A stretch of 28,488 nucleotides of DNA from a virus (taxonomy: Duplodnaviria > Caudoviricetes). The notes under the pieces were generated by a model, which ran no database searches, was not told where the DNA came from, and saw nothing but the letters and a program-made list of their open reading frames with translations. Made by a program: the position numbers and the translations under genes. Below are positions 11,801 to 28,488 of the stretch, one piece after another (the first letter of the stretch is position 1; each line of letters begins with the position of its first letter). The stretch lies in IMG/VR virus record IMGVR_UViG_3300022821_000085, positions 1 to 28,488 of that record; one strand, given 5' to 3'.

Positions 11801-12649
11801 TTACGCTACTAGCACATCATACAAAATTGGTGCCATTTTAGTCCAAGCGTTGAATTTGTAATCAATTCTTGATTCTAGTCCTAGTCCTGAAATTTGAGCT
11901 GATGAAACAACTGGGTTAACAATTTGTTTCATTTTTCCGTAAGTTGATTTAACAATTCCAACGTGAAATGCTTTCTTTACTCCAGCAAATACGTGACCTG
12001 ACACGTTCTTTGATGTTGAATAATGTTCTACACCAAGGTATGAGAAACCTTGTTTGATTCCGTTGTTTAGAACGTTATCTGCTGTGTTGAAACCTTGTGA
12101 TGCTGCTAGTCTTTCAACTTTAGCGAAATCAGCTTCTCTCCATTGGATGAAGATTCCGTTTCGGTCAGCCATTTCTCCTCCTCCTGCTGTTCTGATTGCA
12201 GTTTTGATTTCTACAACGATGTCATCGATGTTTGAAGTCGCTACTGTAATGTTTCCTGCTGCACCTCCAATTGAAGCGTTGTCGAAGTTTGTCCATGAAG
12301 CGTGTCCTGCAAGCATTGCAGTTTCCATAGTTTCGTTCAACATTGTTCCCATATTGTCAGCAATTTCCATGAAGTCGCTGAATGACTTTTGAGCTAAGTC
12401 AGCTTCATCAATATGTTGTGCTGAATATTTGTAAGTGTTGATTGTTACTGTATCATCTGTTGTAGCTGATGCTGTAGATGTGTAACCTGTTCCTCTAGTT
12501 CCTGTTCCTATTGTTGAATCTGTTAGATAAGGATTGTGTAGGACTCCTGTGTCTGTGTAAGAAACTTTACAAACCTCTTTCCACACTGCTGGTGCAGATA
12601 GACGTTCTTGTAATTTTGTTTCAAACTCTTCTGATGGTACGATTGAAAT
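11801..12649 (-). CDS. major capsid protein (HK97 fold, P22-coat-like); 5' end unresolved
   Basis: Follows the scaffold gene; frame stays open upstream of the track's GTG (12586) as ISIVPSEEFETKLQERLSAPAVWKEV, with no ATG before the TGA at 12677-12679. Confidence 0.8.
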   Translation of the reverse strand: MSIVPSEEFETKLQERLSAPAVWKEVCKVSYTDTGVLHNPYLTDSTIGTGTRGTGYTSTASATTDDTVTINTYKYSAQHIDEADLAQKSFSDFMEIADNMGTMLNETMETAMLAGHASWTNFDNASIGGAAGNITVATSNIDDIVVEIKTAIRTAGGGEMADRNGIFIQWREADFAKVERLAASQGFNTADNVLNNGIKQGFSYLGVEHYSTSKNVSGHVFAGVKKAFHVGIVKSTYGKMKQIVNPVVSSAQISGLGLESRIDYKFNAWTKMAPILYDVLVA

Positions 12650-12659
12650 ATTGTTTAGT

Positions 12660-13317
12660 ATGACTGCTTTATATCTTCAAATTAAATATGCTATATTGGG
12701 GTTAATATCTTTTTGTATTTTTCTTCAAATAAATGTTCCTTATAAAAAGTTTTCATATGGCATTTTCTACACAAAGTTATTCCATTATTAATGTCAAACT
12801 TTATATTCATATCATTTCTTAATGGAACAATATGATGAGGTTCCAAGCGACCTCCAATGGTTCTACATTCCTGACAAGTAAAATCATCTCTTTCAAAGAT
12901 AGTTTTTCTCCAATCCTTCCACTCGCCACCACCCCTTAGCCTTTGCTTTTCTAACTGGGCAGTTCTATTTTTAATCCATCTGGGGTGTTTTGTACCCACT
13001 CTTGAACGAGCAGATTGTTTTTGTTTTTCTGATGTTGTTTTTCCTAGATTAGAATAAACAAACTCTGGTCTACTTTTAGCAGAACAAGATAGTGAACAAA
13101 ATTTAGATTTTTTAGCATTCTTATAGTTTGCTTCATAATCTTTTTTACAATACTCACAAGTTTTGATAGTAACTTTTCTCCCTTTAAAATATTTCTTTCT
13201 GTTGGTATGGGTTCTACCCTTGTTTATGAGTTTGTGCTTTTCTGTTCTTTGGTAAACTCCTGATGGCATATTAACCACATTATAGCATATTTAATTGTGA
13301 ATGAGCTTCGGCGTCAT
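12660..13317 (-). mobile_element. inverted-repeat-bounded HNH insertion at the capsid gene start (intron-like element)
   Basis: Arms 12676-12708 and 13268-13301 (perfect 16-bp and 9-bp blocks); outer ATGAC-GC (13317-13311) pairs with GC-A-GTCAT (12667-12660). Confidence 0.7.
12691..13269 (-). CDS. HNH homing endonuclease with N-terminal basic/zinc-ribbon DNA-binding regions
   Basis: RDDFTCQEC...LEPHHIVP...NGITLCRKCH HNH core; CEYC...FCSLSC zinc ribbon; MPSGVYQR start 9 nt after TGCTATAAT. Confidence 0.85.
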   Translation of the reverse strand: MPSGVYQRTEKHKLINKGRTHTNRKKYFKGRKVTIKTCEYCKKDYEANYKNAKKSKFCSLSCSAKSRPEFVYSNLGKTTSEKQKQSARSRVGTKHPRWIKNRTAQLEKQRLRGGGEWKDWRKTIFERDDFTCQECRTIGGRLEPHHIVPLRNDMNIKFDINNGITLCRKCHMKTFYKEHLFEEKYKKILTPI

Positions 13318-13341
13318 CTTTAGTTAATTTATTAATTTAAC

Positions 13342-13887
13342 TTAAGAGTTGTAGAAAGTTCCTGATGAATCATCTTTTTTAATTCGTGCGTTTACTACGT
13401 CACGTCTTAATTGCTGTTCTGATGCTGGTGGTAATTCTCCTTTTGCTATCCAATATTCTACTGAATCTGATGTTGAATTATTTGAGCGTTTACTACCTTC
13501 TGGATTAGCTTGTTCAGTTGTTTTAGTTTCTCTTAAAGTTTTAAGTTCTAATTGAAAGTAAGTGCTGTCCAAAAGTGCTTCTAAGTCTTTTCCTGTCTCT
13601 TTAGATAGTTTCCTAGCTAAATCTTTTTCATCTGATTCTTTAATGCCATTAGCAATTAAGTATGCAGATTCTCCTAAGTTATTTGATTCTTGTTTTACTT
13701 CTTTTTCTTCCGTTACGCCTAACTTTTTGTTAGTTTGCTCTAATTGTCTAGTTAGTCTTGAGCGTCTTGCTTCTAACGTTTCTGTAGGTTTTTTGATTTC
13801 GGCTTTATCCTCAACTTCTTCTTCGTCAAGTTCAATGTCAATATCTTCTTCTACATCTTCGTTTAATTCTTCGTTTTCTTCGTTCAT
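13342..13887 (-). CDS. capsid scaffolding protein
   Basis: Very acidic N-terminus, coiled coil, located between portal region and capsid gene. Confidence 0.7.
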   Translation of the reverse strand: MNEENEELNEDVEEDIDIELDEEEVEDKAEIKKPTETLEARRSRLTRQLEQTNKKLGVTEEKEVKQESNNLGESAYLIANGIKESDEKDLARKLSKETGKDLEALLDSTYFQLELKTLRETKTTEQANPEGSKRSNNSTSDSVEYWIAKGELPPASEQQLRRDVVNARIKKDDSSGTFYNS

Positions 13888-18999: not shown

Positions 19000-19025
19000 A
19001 TATAAATTATACTACTAATCTGTTG

Positions 19026-19098
19026 AGCTGACAAGAGGATTCGAACCCCTGACCTATTCATTACAAGTGAATTGCTCTACCATCTGAGCTATGCCAGC
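19026..19098 (-). tRNA. tRNA-Thr (anticodon UGU), no encoded CCA
   Basis: GCTGGCA/TGTCAGC acceptor stem, GCTC-AGATGGTA-GAGC D arm, ATTCA-CTTGTAA-TGAAT anticodon arm, AGGGG-TTCGAAT-CCTCT T arm. Confidence 0.95.
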
Positions 19099-20538: not shown

Positions 20539-20937
20539 TTATTTATTGTTTAATGTTTTAAACTGCATGTTATACCAATGTATATCTGCTTTAACTGTTC
20601 CACGCTTTTTAATTTCTATTTCTCTAAACCAGTCGAGTCCTTTTATTTCAACAATCTTGGAAGCCCAATAGCTTTCATTATGGTGTAACATTAAATGACA
20701 ATGTGTGCATAATGGTATTAGGTTTTCTAGGTCATATCTTAAAGCTAAACTCTTTGACTTATGCACATGGTGATGGGCGACTTGAGATTTATAAGAGCAA
20801 TTAAGATTATCCTCCAACCCATTTAAGAGACACACTGGGTGCATTTCTGTAATAATTGGAGAAAGTAATCTATCGCACTTCTTCTGCATTTTAGATGTTG
20901 CAGACTTACCAACTCTTTTTATAGGACTCCTTTTCAT
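20539..20937 (-). CDS. NinG/Rap-like HNH nuclease
   Basis: AHHHVHKSKSLALRYDLENLIPLCTHCH, matching the NinG-type LRxDxxNxxxxCxxC pattern. Confidence 0.7.
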   Translation of the reverse strand: MKRSPIKRVGKSATSKMQKKCDRLLSPIITEMHPVCLLNGLEDNLNCSYKSQVAHHHVHKSKSLALRYDLENLIPLCTHCHLMLHHNESYWASKIVEIKGLDWFREIEIKKRGTVKADIHWYNMQFKTLNNK

Positions 20938-23175: not shown

Positions 23176-23201
23176 ATGTTTGTTTAACTATTAATACTTA
23201 T

Positions 23202-23244
23202 ATTATAACTAATCTGTGGTTTTAAGCTATTGAGTTATCCACAG
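23202..23244 (-). promoter_or_regulatory. DnaA-box-coupled promoter 2 (recombination operon)
   Basis: CTGTGGATAACT-3 nt-TAGCTT-16 nt-TATAAT. Confidence 0.7.
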
Positions 23245-23260
23245 TTTTAATTATCTAGTG

Positions 23261-23800
23261 TTATTTCTCCCTTTTCGTGTTAGTTGGTAATAGAGAGATG
23301 ACATCATCATAGCAACTGTCATATTTAAAACTGCCTGTTTGTTTTTGTACTAATGTCTTTATCTTCTCTATCTTCCCCCTCAACCTCTCTCTCTCTTCTG
23401 CTACGTCTTGTGCGATTGAGGTGGCGAGCCATTCGGGTTCAACAAGCGTTGCTTTCGTATACTCATACACGTTATACCCGCCATCTTCATCAACACCCTC
23501 TTCGTAAAGCCCATTTACAAAATCGTTTTCTTCTAGTTCGTAATCACAACCCACAACCCTACTTCCTAGCACTATCCCTTTTTGTAGTAATGATATTTCA
23601 CTGTCAAACACCTCATCACCACCCTCTCCTGTGTGACTATCATATACTTCAAAAAGGACGATAACCCCATCTCTCCATTTCACTTTACTAATTTCTTTTT
23701 CATCTATCTCATTACATTTTGCTTGATATTCTTTATACGCTGGTTCTTCTATTGCATTATATTCTGCATACGCTTTGTCTTTTTGTTCTTGTTTTGTCAT
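23261..23800 (-). CDS. hypothetical acidic protein with N-terminus shared with 25276..25458; start revised to 23800
   Basis: MTKQEQKDKAYAEYNAIEEPAYKEYQA is identical in both genes, including the upstream leader DNA. Confidence 0.65.
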   Translation of the reverse strand: MTKQEQKDKAYAEYNAIEEPAYKEYQAKCNEIDEKEISKVKWRDGVIVLFEVYDSHTGEGGDEVFDSEISLLQKGIVLGSRVVGCDYELEENDFVNGLYEEGVDEDGGYNVYEYTKATLVEPEWLATSIAQDVAEERERLRGKIEKIKTLVQKQTGSFKYDSCYDDVISLLPTNTKREK

Positions 23801-23817
23801 ATGTTTATTTTTTAAGT
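23719..23817. repeat. 99-bp direct repeat, copy 1 (copy 2 at 25377..25475)
   Basis: Base-for-base identity by manual alignment. Confidence 0.85.
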
Positions 23818-23840
23818 TAATAATTTTTATTGCTAACATA

Positions 23841-24020
23841 TTAGTTTTTTATCTCATCGCCAAACCATTTTTCTAAAAAGTTCATTTGTTCATCTGTGAA
23901 CCCTGAATCATACCCATCTCTAATAAACATGTCGTAAGTCATTCTGTGGTTGTGTCCTCTTTTAACATCTCCTTCTGGTAAATCTTTACAATCTTCACAA
24001 TGTCTTTTATTCCATTTCAT
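23841..24020 (-). CDS. small hypothetical protein (59 aa, MKWNKRHCEDC...)
   Basis: ATG at 24020, TAA at 23841-23843; CxxC plus His residues. Confidence 0.6.
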   Translation of the reverse strand: MKWNKRHCEDCKDLPEGDVKRGHNHRMTYDMFIRDGYDSGFTDEQMNFLEKWFGDEIKN

Positions 24021-24023
24021 ATC

Positions 24024-24390
24024 CTATTTTTTAAGTAAGTTAATAACTTCTTCTAGTCTTGCTTGTGCTTGTTCTTTACCTTTTGGTGTATGGGGGAAGA
24101 TGAGGTTGAGGGATAGTCTGTTTTTATCTTCTTTCTGCTCACTCCAAGATTCTTCATATACACCTAAAGGTTCTATATCTACATAGTAATACAATTCATT
24201 TATTTCTGGTGTCCATTTTGGTTCTTGTAGTGTAAAACCATAAAAATCTAATTCTAGTAGAGTCAAAAGTTCTCTACATACCTCATCTGAATTATCATAA
24301 GTAAGAATATAATAATCTCTAACTATTCCTAATATTTTTCTTGTATTTCCGTTTTTATCTATTATTGTGTCGTTTTGTTTGATATTTCAT
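24024..24390 (-). pseudogene. frameshifted paralog of 25463..25828
   Basis: ATGAAATATCAAACAAAAC versus ATGAAATACAAACAAAAC: one extra base in codon 3; the rest of the frame is intact and homologous. Confidence 0.7.
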
Positions 24391-24596
24391 ATTTGGAGTT
24401 TTTCAAGCATATCTCTTGTTCCTTTAAACTGTGGTATCTCATCTAATTCTATTTCATTTATTTCTAATAAGTCTTTAACAATTTCAGCAACATATTCACT
24501 TTCTCTGTCTGGAAAATCATCGTGATGTATTCCATCCTCTGTCATTTCTTCCATTGCTAGGTCTACTATATTCTCTTGTATTGTTTTAATGTTCAT
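24387..24596 (-). CDS. small acidic hypothetical protein
   Basis: 69 aa, D/E-rich; ATGA overlaps at both ends. Confidence 0.65.
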   Translation of the reverse strand: MNIKTIQENIVDLAMEEMTEDGIHHDDFPDRESEYVAEIVKDLLEINEIELDEIPQFKGTRDMLEKLQI

Positions 24597-24943
24597 AATT
24601 TTTGTATTAACGCTAATGTCTTCTTGTAATAGTCTATTTGGTCTTGGATTGCTATTTTCCTGCCCAGAAAGTAAGAGGATTCATAATCCTGTGGAATAGT
24701 AATTGATTCTATTCTTTCTATCTCATTTATCTTTCTAAGGTTAATTTTTATTGTTCCCTTCTCCAACTCTAATCTCTCTATCTCGTTCTCTATAAATGAT
24801 ATGTGAGATTGTTTGATGAAAATATCTATTCTCACCAATTGTGGTTCTTGAAATTCATCAGGCAACACCCCGTCTATACCATTATTCATAAAATTATTTC
24901 TAAACTCCTCTATATTCTTTTGTATGTTATCTATTGTTGACAT
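24593..24943 (-). CDS. hypothetical protein
   Basis: 116 aa ORF, tightly packed. Confidence 0.65.
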   Translation of the reverse strand: MSTIDNIQKNIEEFRNNFMNNGIDGVLPDEFQEPQLVRIDIFIKQSHISFIENEIERLELEKGTIKINLRKINEIERIESITIPQDYESSYFLGRKIAIQDQIDYYKKTLALIQKL

Positions 24944-24944
24944 A

Positions 24945-25265
24945 TTAGAATCGTGATTTAAGTATTTTATTTCCCTTTTGAACCCTTTTTAGTTTAGTTT
25001 TAAGTTCTGATAATCTTTCTTTATTAGAGTTAATTTTTTCCTGCAAATCATTTTCAATTTCTCTGTATAAAGTTTTGTCAGTATGTTCTAGTAAATTATC
25101 AATTTCATTCTCTAATTCTTTTAAACTGTTAAACCTTTTTCTACTATAATCCCAATTTCCACAGTAAATCTCATAATATGTATATGTTTGAAAAACTTTA
25201 AATGAAATATCCCAATAGCACTCATATTTTTTACTTAATTCTGTTAATTTATTATCTATTTTCAT
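24945..25265 (-). CDS. hypothetical protein with C-terminal coiled coil
   Basis: 106 aa ORF, tightly packed. Confidence 0.65.
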   Translation of the reverse strand: MKIDNKLTELSKKYECYWDISFKVFQTYTYYEIYCGNWDYSRKRFNSLKELENEIDNLLEHTDKTLYREIENDLQEKINSNKERLSELKTKLKRVQKGNKILKSRF

Positions 25266-25275
25266 AATTTATTTT

Positions 25276-25458
25276 TTAATCCACTAACTTATATTTCTTG
25301 CCATCAATTATTTTAATATCTAGCTCGTCTATCTCATTACATTTTGATTGATATTCTTTAAACGCTTGTTTTTCTATTGCTTGATATTCTTTATACGCTG
25401 GTTCTTCTATTGCATTATATTCTGCATACGCTTTGTCTTTTTGTTCTTGTTTTGTCAT
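25276..25458 (-). CDS. small hypothetical protein with 11-aa internal repeats
   Basis: AYAEYNAIEEP / AYKEYQAIEKQ / AFKEYQSKCNE; ends IIDGKKYKLVD. Confidence 0.65.
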   Translation of the reverse strand: MTKQEQKDKAYAEYNAIEEPAYKEYQAIEKQAFKEYQSKCNEIDELDIKIIDGKKYKLVD

Positions 25459-25475
25459 ATGTTTATTTTTTAAGT
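25377..25475. repeat. 99-bp direct repeat, copy 2
   Basis: Identical to 23719..23817. Confidence 0.85.
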
Positions 25476-25828
25476 AACTCTACTACTTCTAATAATCTTG
25501 CTTCTGCCTGCTTCTTTCCTTCTGGTGTAAAAGGGAAAATTAGGTTTAAATCTTTTCTACTGTTATCAATTTCACAATTAAACCAGAAAATTCTTCTAAC
25601 AGAATTTACTTCAATATTTGGATAATAATAATCTTCATATATTTCTGGTGTCCATTTTGGTTCTTGTAGTGTGTAGCCTGAATTGTCTAATTCTTCTTGA
25701 TTCCAAAGCATTTCACTCACTTTATCTGAATTTTCATGAGTAAGAATATAATAATCTCTAACTATTCCTAATATTTTTCTTGTATTTCCGTTTTTATCTA
25801 TTATTATGTCGTTTTGTTTGTATTTCAT
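25463..25828 (-). CDS. hypothetical protein (intact paralog of 24024..24390)
   Basis: 121 aa ORF sharing DNA blocks with 24202-24233 and 24301-24366. Confidence 0.7.
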   Translation of the reverse strand: MKYKQNDIIIDKNGNTRKILGIVRDYYILTHENSDKVSEMLWNQEELDNSGYTLQEPKWTPEIYEDYYYPNIEVNSVRRIFWFNCEIDNSRKDLNLIFPFTPEGKKQAEARLLEVVELLKK

Positions 25829-25830
25829 AA

Positions 25831-26433
25831 TTAGTTCTCCACTTGAAAACCAAGTGCGTTTAAGAAATCTGGTAACTGCTCTTTTGTTAGTTTTGATGTT
25901 CCTCCTTTTCCATAGAATTTAGCATTCATTAACTCTGCTTCACGAAGGTTTGCTTCACGAAGGTTTGCTTCACTAAGGTCTGCTTCACGAAGGTTTGCTC
26001 CACGAAGGTCTGCTTCACGAAGGTTTGCTTCACTAAGGTCTGCTTCACGAAGGTTTGCTTCACGAAGGTCTGCTTCACGAAGGTTTGCTTCACTAAGGTC
26101 TGCTTCACGAAGGTTTGCTTCACGAAGGTTTGCTCCACGAAGGTTTGCTCCACGAAGGTTTGCTTCACTAAGGTCTGCTTCACGAAGGTTTGCTCCACGA
26201 AGGTTTGCTCCACGAAGGTTTGCTTCACTAAGGTCTGCTTCACGAAGGTTTGCTTCCTCTACAGCTTCTCCCCATGTTGTTTTAGTTGATGTAAATATTA
26301 CATTTCCCGTAAATCTGTTTTTAATTTCTAACCCCACTTTCTTTTCTTCTACAGGTTTACTGTTTTGTTTTACAATTGCTTTTACTTCATCATCTGTTAA
26401 TTCTATTTCTTTGTTTTTTAATGTGTATTTCAT
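25831..26433 (-). CDS. pentapeptide repeat protein
   Basis: About 21 tandem A[D/N]L[R/S][E/G] units. Confidence 0.9.
   Translation of the reverse strand: MKYTLKNKEIELTDDEVKAIVKQNSKPVEEKKVGLEIKNRFTGNVIFTSTKTTWGEAVEEANLREADLSEANLRGANLRGANLREADLSEANLRGANLRGANLREANLREADLSEANLREADLREANLREADLSEANLREADLRGANLREADLSEANLREANLREAELMNAKFYGKGGTSKLTKEQLPDFLNALGFQVEN
25936..26256. repeat. 15-bp coding tandem repeat (tgcttcacgaaggtt and variants)
   Basis: Directly visible; encodes the pentapeptide repeats. Confidence 0.9.
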
Positions 26434-26435
26434 AA

Positions 26436-26981
26436 TTATTTTATTACTTTTACTTCATATCCTAACTTCTCTGATATTTCTGCTACTGTCATTTCTTTAG
26501 AAATCTCCATATTAGGTTTAAACCCTATAATTTTCTCTACAACATTTATATCCCATTCTGGTAGTTTAGCTAGTTCCTGCCATACAGAGTTAGGTAATTT
26601 TTTCCATTCGTCTGTCCATTCGTTATTTTCTAGTTCTAGTTTGAAATCTCCTTTTAGTTTGTTCCAAAGGTTTATAATTTCATATAACCTATCTGTTGTA
26701 ACTTGCTTATTAAACGCATAGTATTCTTTGCATTTTATATCACAGCAGAAGATTACATTACGACTTGAATCTACATTACGACTTGAATATACGATACGAC
26801 TTGAATCTACATTACGACTTGAATCTACATTACGACTTGAATATACATTACGACTTGAATATACATTACAACTTGAATCTACATTACGACTTGAATCTAC
26901 ATTACGACTTGAATATACATTACGACTTGAATATACAACACGACTTGAATCTACATCACTTGAATTATTTATATTTTCCAT
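26436..26981 (-). CDS. hexapeptide-repeat (beta-solenoid-like) protein
   Basis: About 12 SSRNV[D/Y] units followed by a helical domain ending EMTVAEISEKLGYEVKVIK. Confidence 0.75.
   Translation of the reverse strand: MENINNSSDVDSSRVVYSSRNVYSSRNVDSSRNVDSSCNVYSSRNVYSSRNVDSSRNVDSSRIVYSSRNVDSSRNVIFCCDIKCKEYYAFNKQVTTDRLYEIINLWNKLKGDFKLELENNEWTDEWKKLPNSVWQELAKLPEWDINVVEKIIGFKPNMEISKEMTVAEISEKLGYEVKVIK
26753..26963. repeat. 18-bp coding tandem repeat (tacattacgacttgaatc/ta)
   Basis: Directly visible; encodes the SSRNV[D/Y] units. Confidence 0.9.
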
Positions 26982-27272: not shown

Positions 27273-27298
27273 AATGTTTTGTTAACTGCTATGTGTAT

Positions 27299-27341
27299 AT
27301 TATAGCTAATCTGTTTTGATTGTCTAATTAGTTATCCACAG
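27299..27341 (-). promoter_or_regulatory. DnaA-box-coupled promoter 1
   Basis: CTGTGGATAACT-3 nt-TAGACA-16 nt-TATAAT. Confidence 0.75.
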
Positions 27342-27609
27342 TTTTATATTACAGACATAGAAAGCAACTTTTACCTTTTAATGTAAGGCAAACTTTGGCT
27401 CTCTTTATATGTATTATTTACTGTTAATAGTTTACACAAGTTAATGCTTCTCTATCTAGTTAATTACGATACTTATTAAACGACAGGGCAAGAGTTGCCA
27501 ACTTGTTTTCCCTGTTTTCTCATAAATACCTTAATCAACTTTAAAATTTAGAAGACGTAGTTTAAAATTCCAGAACGCCTTAAAGGAATGTTGTAAATAA
27601 ATTGTATGC

Positions 27610-27760: not shown

Positions 27761-28368
27761 AGAGTGATATACACACCTTTTACAAATCATTATCTGGTTT
27801 ATGAGAAGCATAAAGCTTACCAAACATCGAAATTGTGTGCATACATCACTCTATTCTCTACGGGTTCATTCAGCTCAAAATAGTCTACTTTTGAACACTT
27901 CTCTATGATTAAGAACTGGTGGCGCTAGGCTAAGCATGATTAGTACCTAATTTTCTAAAATCACCTAGCTGCATCAATTCTCAATCTATTTATAATGTGC
28001 AAGATTGAGAAGGCAAGGTTTGACTTGCAAGAAGGCTCTAGGTTTATGTTGGGGAATATAACCGTATCCTTTTCCAACTCCTGTCAATTCAGGGCGACCT
28101 ATTTTATTTTGGGAACGTGCGTTATCCCTATTCCTAGCTACCGTATATTCTAGGTAGCTTTCGGCTCACAGTCCGATACTCCTCAATTCTACACACTATT
28201 TATAATGTGCAGGAGCGGGGGTATCCTAACCTCTAGACGAATGAATACAGCTATATCAAATGTTTTAAATATTGTTTAATGTACACTCGACAATATCCTA
28301 CACATTATATTTCGCTAATCATAGGGGAATCGAACCCCTGTCTACCCCTGCTTCTACACATTATATTT
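27761..28368 (-). ncRNA. cluster of candidate structured non-coding RNA modules
   Basis: No long ORF; successive long-range closing stems (27761-27852, 27917-27976, 27996-28195, 28204-28362) separated by repeated linkers. Confidence 0.45.
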
Positions 28369-28488
28369 ATGTTAAAGTTCTTCCTAAAGTATACACTATA
28401 ATCTTTTAATAAGATAGCCCACTTTAGAATATTTAGCTGGCAACTTTTCAGCTGTGTCGCAAAGGTCTAATACAACATTCATTGGCAA

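Follow-up and report, generated by a model that had tools for sequence, protein, structure and literature searches.

On the minus strand of an uncultured lake phage record, there are genes for the terminase, a probable scaffold protein, an HNH endonuclease and the major capsid protein, and the capsid reading frame has no ATG at its beginning. The locus raises the question where translation of the capsid gene starts and why its ATG is missing. The original prediction reasoned that the capsid protein must still be made despite the insert, which we accept, and suggested that an undescribed minimal intron-like element may be spliced out, joining the AUG at 13317 to the capsid frame. All positions refer to the window, i.e., the whole stretch of 28,488 nt that was analyzed, and the features at this locus are:

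13342..13887, minus strand: upstream gene, probable capsid scaffold, 181 aa (open reading frame; role from position)
13323..13341, minus strand: P0, native A+U-rich hairpin (pair probabilities 0.5-0.8)
13311..13319, minus strand: 5' strand of P1, including the originally noted ATG at 13317-13315 (fold; covariation in relatives)
13291..13317, minus strand: eight-codon open reading frame MTPKLIHN*, unconserved (ATG here in 2/10 HNH alleles)
13304..13309, minus strand: 5' strand of the internal loop, GAAGCT (consensus RAARUU)
13268..13303, minus strand: 5' arm of P2 and the long stem, pairs the HNH start region (inverted repeat and fold)
13279..13287, minus strand: predicted extended -10 promoter TGCTATAAT of an HNH mRNA with almost no leader (sequence only)
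12691..13269, minus strand: HNH endonuclease gene, 192 aa
12675..12708, minus strand: 3' arm of P2 and the long stem, overlaps the HNH stop (inverted repeat and fold)
12669..12674, minus strand: 3' strand of the internal loop, ATATAA; last four bases invariant in 23/23 scored
12657..12667, minus strand: 3' strand of P1 with a bulged A (fold)
12647..12649, minus strand: ATT, presumed capsid start codon, positionally homologous to the ATG of empty alleles
11801..12649, minus strand: major capsid protein gene, 282 codons given the ATT start (phrog_267, Atlas neighbours, alignment)

The capsid protein matches phrog_267 (major head, E 3e-13), and its Atlas neighbours carry Phage_capsid_2/_4. The upstream 181-aa gene (13342..13887) had no matches in Pfam or PHROG.

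The capsid gene probably starts with ATT

The capsid frame is indeed open from 12676 without an ATG, and the ATG at 13317, 24 nt past the upstream stop, opens MTPKLIHN* alone, both as noted from the start. When capsid N-termini and upstream DNA were aligned between relatives with and without the HNH gene, the ATT of the window fell on the ATG position of the relatives. An assembly error at 12649-12647 was considered; however, the ATT recurs across independent assemblies. It is also found in L002, L003 and L005, which originate from other assemblies and share 94-96% capsid identity, and over 12616-12800 a contig of run X4 is identical to the window (0 differences). A contig of run X3 crosses the ATT site as well, and no variant is listed there. 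Empty alleles with ATG are present in the same runs as the carrier.

Gene callers choose the GTG at 12586, and the Atlas entry of the window capsid begins at residue 21. A start at this GTG would place residues E9 and L12-L16 outside the protein, although these are invariant in 22/22 aligned capsids; in practice, gene callers truncate such capsids. We have little doubt, judging from the sequences, that the capsid initiates at the AUU at 12649 without splicing. Initiation at AUU is favoured because it explains the absence of upstream ATGs in relatives, the near-cognate codons found in their place and the loss of ATG in a second capsid family that has no helix, and because it does not need splicing.

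Splicing and bypass of the insert

The proposed minimal intron could draw on several observations: a 668-nt excision would be in frame, P1 pairs the AUG, true group I-like introns occur at the capsid 5' ends of relatives (L412, L436, L456, L458 and L478), and group I introns in phage capsid genes have been published (excerpts of PMC3706429). However, an ATG in the stretch from the scaffold stop to the loop is found in only 2/10 HNH alleles (L001 and L009), and 13/19 non-ATG remnants (with L410 and L411 outside this count) have none anywhere in the intergenic region. In 8/10 HNH and 13/19 remnant alleles, the frame-restoring ligation typical of group I introns would find no AUG to join. In addition, the codon ahead of residue 2 is always near-cognate, and the second capsid family loses its ATG behind an HNH gene without a flanking helix. 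Also the junctions speak against an intron, as the would-be intron begins with AC and ends with ATT, without a 5' U and without a terminal G; group I exons end in U and their introns in G, whereas here the exon would end in G and the intron in ATT. The ends ACGCCG and AATATT do not correspond to those of group II introns (GUGYG and AY), and an Rfam match was lacking. As the upstream ATG is absent in most alleles and a non-AUG start suffices, splicing of the AUG at 13317 to the capsid frame is very unlikely. Among the sequencing runs listed for the locus, none was an RNA run.

The search for introns with Rfam models identified none in the window (RF00028, E<=1) or in nine compact loci, and did find the intron of L338 (79.7 bits). 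RF00028 scored the compact L016 at 9.9 bits against a cut-off of 50, compact copies being only ~50 nt long. By itself this negative result is weak, since RF00028 also did not detect the intron of L412 described below. Together, the Rfam search and the reading of the junctions bear out the original statement that the insert has no group I or II intron core, no GUGYG start and no terminal G.

Programmed bypass of the T4 gene 60 type involves a conserved upstream open reading frame and matched take-off and landing codons. A recoding element had been suggested, and a ribosome could conceivably leave MTPKLIHN* at its AAT-stop and land on an in-frame AAT, since a matching AAT lies two codons ahead of residue 2. 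However, the short frame is missing in most alleles, with an upstream ATG in just 2/10. Taken together with the GTG start, which has the choice of the gene callers in its favour, and with an assembly error, bypass accounts for the locus with hardly any probability.

Capsid start codons in alleles with and without the HNH gene

Contig scans (viral, metagenome and genome) yielded 52, 80 (best of 160), 5 and 76 loci, which overlap. The N-terminus of the window-type capsid (family 1) could be placed in 203/207 loci, resulting in 101 distinct upstream 50-mers and, together with six distant loci, in 107 alleles, which were classed by eye. The intergenic region in relatives was bounded by the FYN-stop end of the upstream gene. 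The start codon of empty alleles was ATG in 61 and GTG in 2 (n=63), whereas the HNH alleles (n=12) had ATT, TTG and GTG three times each and ATC, ACG and ATG once each. The only ATG among them belongs to L412, and in the intron-free HNH alleles ATG occurred in 0/11 (Fisher p 2e-11). Among 27 remnants that have lost the HNH gene, 21 were non-ATG and 6 were ATG; four contigs ending inside the element were non-ATG, and one allele remained unclassed. Every substitute start codon is one base from ATG.

In the exception L412, capsid codon 2 is followed by a group I-like intron of 206 nt (L412:1586-1797). By eye, its 5' site has a U and the intron ends with a G, and a complementary guide and segments resembling P7 and P8 are recognizable.

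Presence of the element changed 22 times on the capsid tree. In 14 independent pairs on starred branches, a mean of 10.2 differed in the same way, 0 in the opposite way and 3.8 showed no difference (median p 0.002). L231 (empty, ATG) and L232 (HNH, TTG) have 0 nucleotide differences across 840 nt of capsid, and L016 matches L242 on both flanks of a clean HNH deletion. Invasion, decay and loss are the pattern expected of a homing element, and the patchy presence, the two pairs L231/L232 and L016/L242 and the occurrence of empty alleles in the same runs fit this pattern. A regain of ATG following loss of the HNH gene (6/27 remnants compared to 0/11 HNH alleles) is not significant (p 0.15).

Three further loci were noted. 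At a loose end at window position 12645, run X18 has a seemingly empty TTG allele, like L004 with the whole element deleted. Upstream of the capsid gene, L004 (2953-3000) and L188 contain a second variant of the 3' element (GTAAAGTTCGAGAATA) without the usual loop strand. L498, from a genome of the phylum of G001, encodes a distant capsid (minus strand, 927-1844) with no Met near the frame start and no upstream HNH gene.

The insert is likely a homing endonuclease

The HNH gene lies inside the inverted repeat as originally described; its start had to be corrected to the ATG at 13269, giving a protein of 192 aa. This protein has an N-terminal basic region with CxxC and a C-terminal zinc-ribbon HNH domain (clade A, the ATT/ATC type). 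It matches PF01844 (29.3 bits, above the cut-off), phrog_1271 (E 1.5e-18) and the PDB entries 5H0M and 9K2Z, and H145, H146, N162 and H171 are invariant. In L002, ATT and flanks are kept and the HNH is shortened by an early stop. Among cultured phages, none was found with the window capsid, and HNH matches there were distant.

Thus, HNH catalytic residues, presence and absence at one site, degenerate copies and an intergenic position come together at this locus. By its sequence the upstream insert probably represents an HNH homing endonuclease of a free-standing, modular kind, and homing of the cassette appears highly likely. The results support a mobile HNH cassette enclosed by a conserved RNA helix that belongs to neither group I nor group II introns.

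An extended -10 of the form TGnTATAAT or TGnTATACT precedes the HNH ATG in 10/10 alleles and is decayed in the HNH-deleted L327. The promoter scan did not list it because a -35 match is missing. As the extended -10 is present in all ten alleles, the HNH gene is probably expressed from a separate mRNA with a short leader and kept silent on the long mRNA, by analogy to the hairpins of T4 endonucleases.

Loss of ATG behind HNH genes in other gene families

A search based on the HNH (best 80 of 573 relatives; 11/64 parts scanned) led to an unrelated 396-aa capsid family (family 2), for which 80 loci (best 80 of 121) comprised 65 distinct alleles. With an upstream HNH gene, family 2 started with ATG in 0/6 alleles (5 ATT, 1 TTG), and the start was located 1-4 nt past the HNH stop. 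Without the HNH gene, 56/59 alleles started with ATG (p 1e-6 versus those preceded by HNH). Long-range stems were found in none of the 6 HNH alleles, in which pairing was no better than in shuffles (p 0.44-0.98). Among the 120 family-2 homologs listed, 7 begin at an internal Met.

The same was observed for a connector gene, which has ATG in 21/21 HNH-free alleles and TTG in 2/2 behind HNH; this TTG overlaps a TGA stop, and its flanks are unlike those of the capsid genes. A gene of 182 aa has ATC behind HNH in one allele, and in 120/120 listed homologs the gene calls place a Met at this position or beside it. An association of HNH and non-ATG start was thereby seen in four gene families. There are also possible counter-cases, as judged by eye: at least six related HNH genes are followed by genes with ATG (L334, L347, L354, L357, L358 and L404).

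In L384, a gene starting with GTG directly follows the HNH stop at 2136. L435-L437, L456, L458 and L478 have group I-like introns after codon 13 of the family-2 capsid and retain the ATG; the introns of L435-L437, L456 and L458 contain an endonuclease-like open reading frame, that of L478 does not.

The type of start codon follows the nuclease domain

Trees of 22 rows were calculated for the nuclease domain (81 columns) and the N-terminal domain, and the 21 non-ATG HNHs were scored. On the nuclease tree, the codon class had to change 5 times (mean of shuffles 9.8; 0/500 as low), and on the N-terminal tree 9 times (p 0.37). Conversely, the target gene required 4 changes on the N-terminal tree (0/500 as low) and 8 on the nuclease tree (p 0.21). 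Nucleases of the window type (clade A) include eight with ATT or ATC, spanning three genes; clade A was unsupported as a single clade in the careful tree, where L313, L315 and L412 nest within it. Of the seven members of the starred clade B, six have TTG, again spanning three genes, and one has ATC (L042).

Phage zinc-ribbon HNH domains are described as nicking sites of 3-7 bp and as being able to be fused to other binding domains (PMC3592412). The double dissociation of codon and target is what would be expected of a modular nickase whose binding domain contacts the first codons and whose catalytic domain recognizes a few bases of the ATG. On this sequence evidence we consider it more likely than not that the N-terminal domain binds the first codons of the gene and that the nuclease reads a short motif including the ATG, in which the G would be required by clade A and the A by clade B. 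The nuclease domain is encoded 1-42 nt from the start codon, and joint inheritance could mimic the codon-nuclease pattern. L001, L330 and L417/L418 have a short, similar A+T-rich junction in common.

Loss of ATG as possible self-immunity

We propose that empty alleles with ATG are targets which the HNH would nick at the 5' end of the capsid gene, and that carriers would escape self-nicking through a near-cognate start in place of ATG. That the loss of ATG represents self-immunity against the carrier's own HNH is the reading we prefer, with a probability of roughly 0.6 given the sequences. Against it, the insertion itself replaces bases upstream of the ATG, which might suffice for immunity. If the reading is right, a selfish gene drives the choice of start codons in essential phage genes, and the reading sharply predicts the ATG base required by each nuclease clade. 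In the open-access literature, as far as search listings and the beginnings of abstracts go, a start-codon-targeting endonuclease with intron-free self-immunity by loss of ATG was not found, and the excerpts of 10.64898/2026.09.22.753630 contain no passage on HNH, capsid or homing.

The missing ATG might also reflect history and linkage: the insertion would have taken or displaced the ATG and brought a weak start at its 3' end, and homing would outpace the regain of ATG, with no selection against ATG as such. This would agree with the ATG of the family-2 HNH, which occupies the native initiation region, with the ATG at 13317, which may be the old start, and with the resemblance of 3' junctions among some of the clade A alleles. 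The ATG of the MTPKLIHN* frame may be what is left of the original start of the capsid gene. However, five different near-cognate codons are found and ATG, only one mutation away, occurs in 0/21 intron-free HNH alleles; also, the connector TTG overlaps a TGA stop and its flanks differ from the capsid ones. We regard linkage without selection as unlikely, and self-immunity remains the preferred reading.

An RNA helix encloses the HNH gene

The inverted repeat of ~30 bp reported around the HNH gene was confirmed with 29 nt (12680-12708 with 13268-13296; 93% complementary), and it is the best-matched of the 25 longest among 371 pairs in the window. The duplex of the flanks has -39.9 kcal/mol, compared to -11.8 +/- 2.9 for shuffles (0/300 as low). 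An outer helix which pairs the AUG had also been recognized; here 13317-13311 pair with 12660-12667 at probabilities of 0.84-0.99. Both parts hold, with the correction that they form one continuous helix in which a 6x6 internal loop connects P1 to the repeat. The flanks fold into P1, this internal loop, P2 and the long stem, and the HNH gene sits in the loop of this stem. A P0-type hairpin is found also in empty alleles, 5-10 nt ahead of the ATG.

In 15 compact copies, 86.7% of the cells pair versus 72.5% when shuffled, with 19 two-sided changes (0/500 shuffles), values which kinship may inflate; slid registers of the compact copies gave 36-51% pairing. Among 23 elements with both loop strands, a set that leaves out the alleles L004, L034, L252, L313 and L315 without the 3' strand, four P1 pairs are kept in 19-21, and the loop follows the pattern R.A (23), A/A (23), A-U (23), R.A (23), mostly U.U, and then U-A. 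In the long stem, 23 positions are G-U versus 11 A-C, and the sense strand is more stable in 10/11 alleles, the window being the exception. The G-U excess and the stability of the sense strand lend modest support to pairing of the modelled long stem at the RNA level. A distance of 24-28 nt separates the 3' loop strand from the end of the start codon, and the loop is kept in remnants without HNH. Some ATC, TTG or GTG alleles retain just a hairpin or nothing, and therefore the folded RNA is not essential for every weak start.

The element matched no Rfam family at the gathering score, either in the window or in the compact loci. A covariance model of the 15 compact copies (R1) detected no second copy in the window (best E 1.8), one half-match (L256) and no copy at other genes in 100 loci, and no match in 151 genomes of the phylum of G001, a weak search run without a positive control. 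A pattern scan of viral contigs for the motif (16/64 parts) returned 120 stretches with 2 true copies, both at known capsid loci, and a stricter 5'-arm pattern returned 1 known locus. Four motif strings gave 0 matches in six supplement files of PMC10690425, and the excerpts of PMC1888825 contain nothing on a RAA/UAA loop. A local alternative fold with the loop ahead of the HNH AUG fits L256 and, by eye, not the other loci. The 3' TATAA was dropped as a capsid promoter because the adjoining base covaries with P1, and a tRNA-mimic IRES was ruled out since all codons are near-cognate.

The structure of the flanks is supported, and its roles are inferred. On a long late mRNA, the flanks would fold into P1, the RAA/UAA loop, P2 and the 29-bp stem, with the HNH looped out and its AUG buried. 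The folded element would set a helix ~7-14 nt ahead of the capsid start, where empty alleles have a comparable native hairpin, and it may aid initiation at a weak codon. The HNH would meanwhile be expressed from its own extended -10 promoter. More speculatively, RNase III could cleave the long stem, and the ends would not be rejoined.

The weak start could alternatively serve as a translational gate that keeps the capsid off the transcript from the HNH promoter and is activated only by the folded late mRNA, in which case the nuclease need not read ATG. The extended -10 in 10/10 HNH alleles would fit such a gate, as would the loop, which is invariant and which HNH-less remnants retain at the above distance of 24-28 nt, and the GTG alleles L252, L313 and L315, which lack the 3' loop strand. 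However, family 2, the connector gene and the 182-aa gene have lost ATG and no such RNA was found there, gating does not predict that the codon type tracks the nuclease domain, and six remnants have ATG, three of them (L010, L014 and L197) together with the loop. Gating thus seems a rather improbable explanation compared to self-immunity.

Comparison with known systems, yield of weak starts and probable host

Free-standing endonucleases are described to home and to be silenced by hairpins, and those of T-even phages (mob, seg) resemble the window HNH in the intergenic position by a conserved gene, in patchy occurrence and decay, and in a promoter-like site of their own and RNA pairing over the start (excerpts of PMC2988022). 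Their known cleavage sites are hundreds to thousands of bp away (same excerpts), whereas the inferred target of the window HNH is the start codon of its neighbour, 1-42 nt from the HNH stop. In addition, the window carrier gives up its ATG, and silencing would involve a long-range stem around the entire open reading frame. Collaborative homing, as outlined in the excerpts of PMC2988022, resembles L412, which combines a free-standing HNH with a group I-like intron lacking an open reading frame after codon 2; in the window and 10 other family-1 alleles, a change of the start codon replaces the intron. Group I introns in phage capsid genes (LittleE; excerpts of PMC3706429) share the capsid gene, an endonuclease open reading frame and GAAGAUAUA, which resembles J8/7. 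Unlike the LittleE intron, the window element lies outside the coding frame and has no P3-P7 core, 5'-site U or terminal G. The hidden-HNH insertion of ShiLan (excerpts of PMC11855218) is similar as a homing HNH insertion that persists without a detectable splicing element, but it is read through in frame inside a methylase, while the window insert precedes codon 1 and supplies a new start.

AUU starts are known from infC and pcnB, in which the AUU is sometimes located a few bases past a stop, as in family 2 (excerpts of 10.1101/063800 and PMC3592434). However, these genes are low-level or autoregulated according to the same excerpts, whereas the window capsid is the major virion protein and its codon varies with a mobile element. 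In E. coli, AUU and AUC initiate at 1-2% of AUG (excerpts of 10.1101/063800) or, in another assay, 6-8 times lower than AUG (excerpts of PMC3592434), and this low yield is hard to reconcile with a major capsid gene. In family 2, coupling to the HNH stop could raise initiation, and the folded RNA is the candidate for family 1. It is conceivable, though doubtful, that the cassette is a composite mobile element which offsets its insertion through translation instead of splicing. A start-codon-targeting HNH would reside in an RNA, and the RAA/UAA loop of this RNA would bring ribosomes to AUU, AUC or ACG, sufficiently for a major capsid protein despite IF3. If true, this would be a natural bacterial enhancer of non-AUG initiation, and the cut motifs of the nucleases would be readable from the start codon of each carrier.

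The UAA/GAN internal loop (Lee, Gutell and Russell 2006, via excerpts of PMC12550061) is alike in GAA/AAA opposite UAA by a helix and in two conserved As, and the window loop differs in R.A and then Y.Y mismatches before P2 with no regular pair. Across the 23 elements, the corresponding loop positions read G.A in 16 and A.A in 7, A/A in 23/23 and A-U in 23/23, followed by two mismatches before P2. The likeness of the loop core to UAA/GAN, a sequence resemblance, is a lead only. A link to 23S helix 40 is conceivable. L20-binding leaders (excerpts of PMC1865079) were compared for their loop with conserved As, and the element had no match to Rfam L20_leader.

Relatives of the capsid occur in MAGs labelled Pacebacteria, Gracilibacteria, Woesearchaeota and others, and the SSB of the window matches Patescibacteria at up to 58% (no outgroup control); these similarities suggest a Patescibacterium host. 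Among these probable hosts, IF3 is encoded in 41/41 and RNase III in 38/41. If the reading is right, production of the most abundant virion protein from AUU in hosts that likely bear IF3 is a testable puzzle, for which the locus supplies a candidate RNA.

Elsewhere in the window, a second, short HNH gene (20539-20937, minus strand; NinG/Rap-like PHROG match) is unrelated to the cassette. A tRNA-Thr(TGT) gene lies at 19025-19098 (minus strand), and the window end (28322-28488, minus strand) has a weak partial tmRNA match (E 0.006, below gathering). The regions 25831-26981 and 23719-25820 contain genes with tandem repeats of 15 nt (pentapeptide-repeat-like) and 18 nt, and duplicated gene segments of 99-211 nt are also present. 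A 51-nt repeat occurs at 23199-23249 and 27296-27346; each copy contains TTATCCACA, which we take to be DnaA-box-like, and a minus-strand TATAAT, and the copies are possible promoters.
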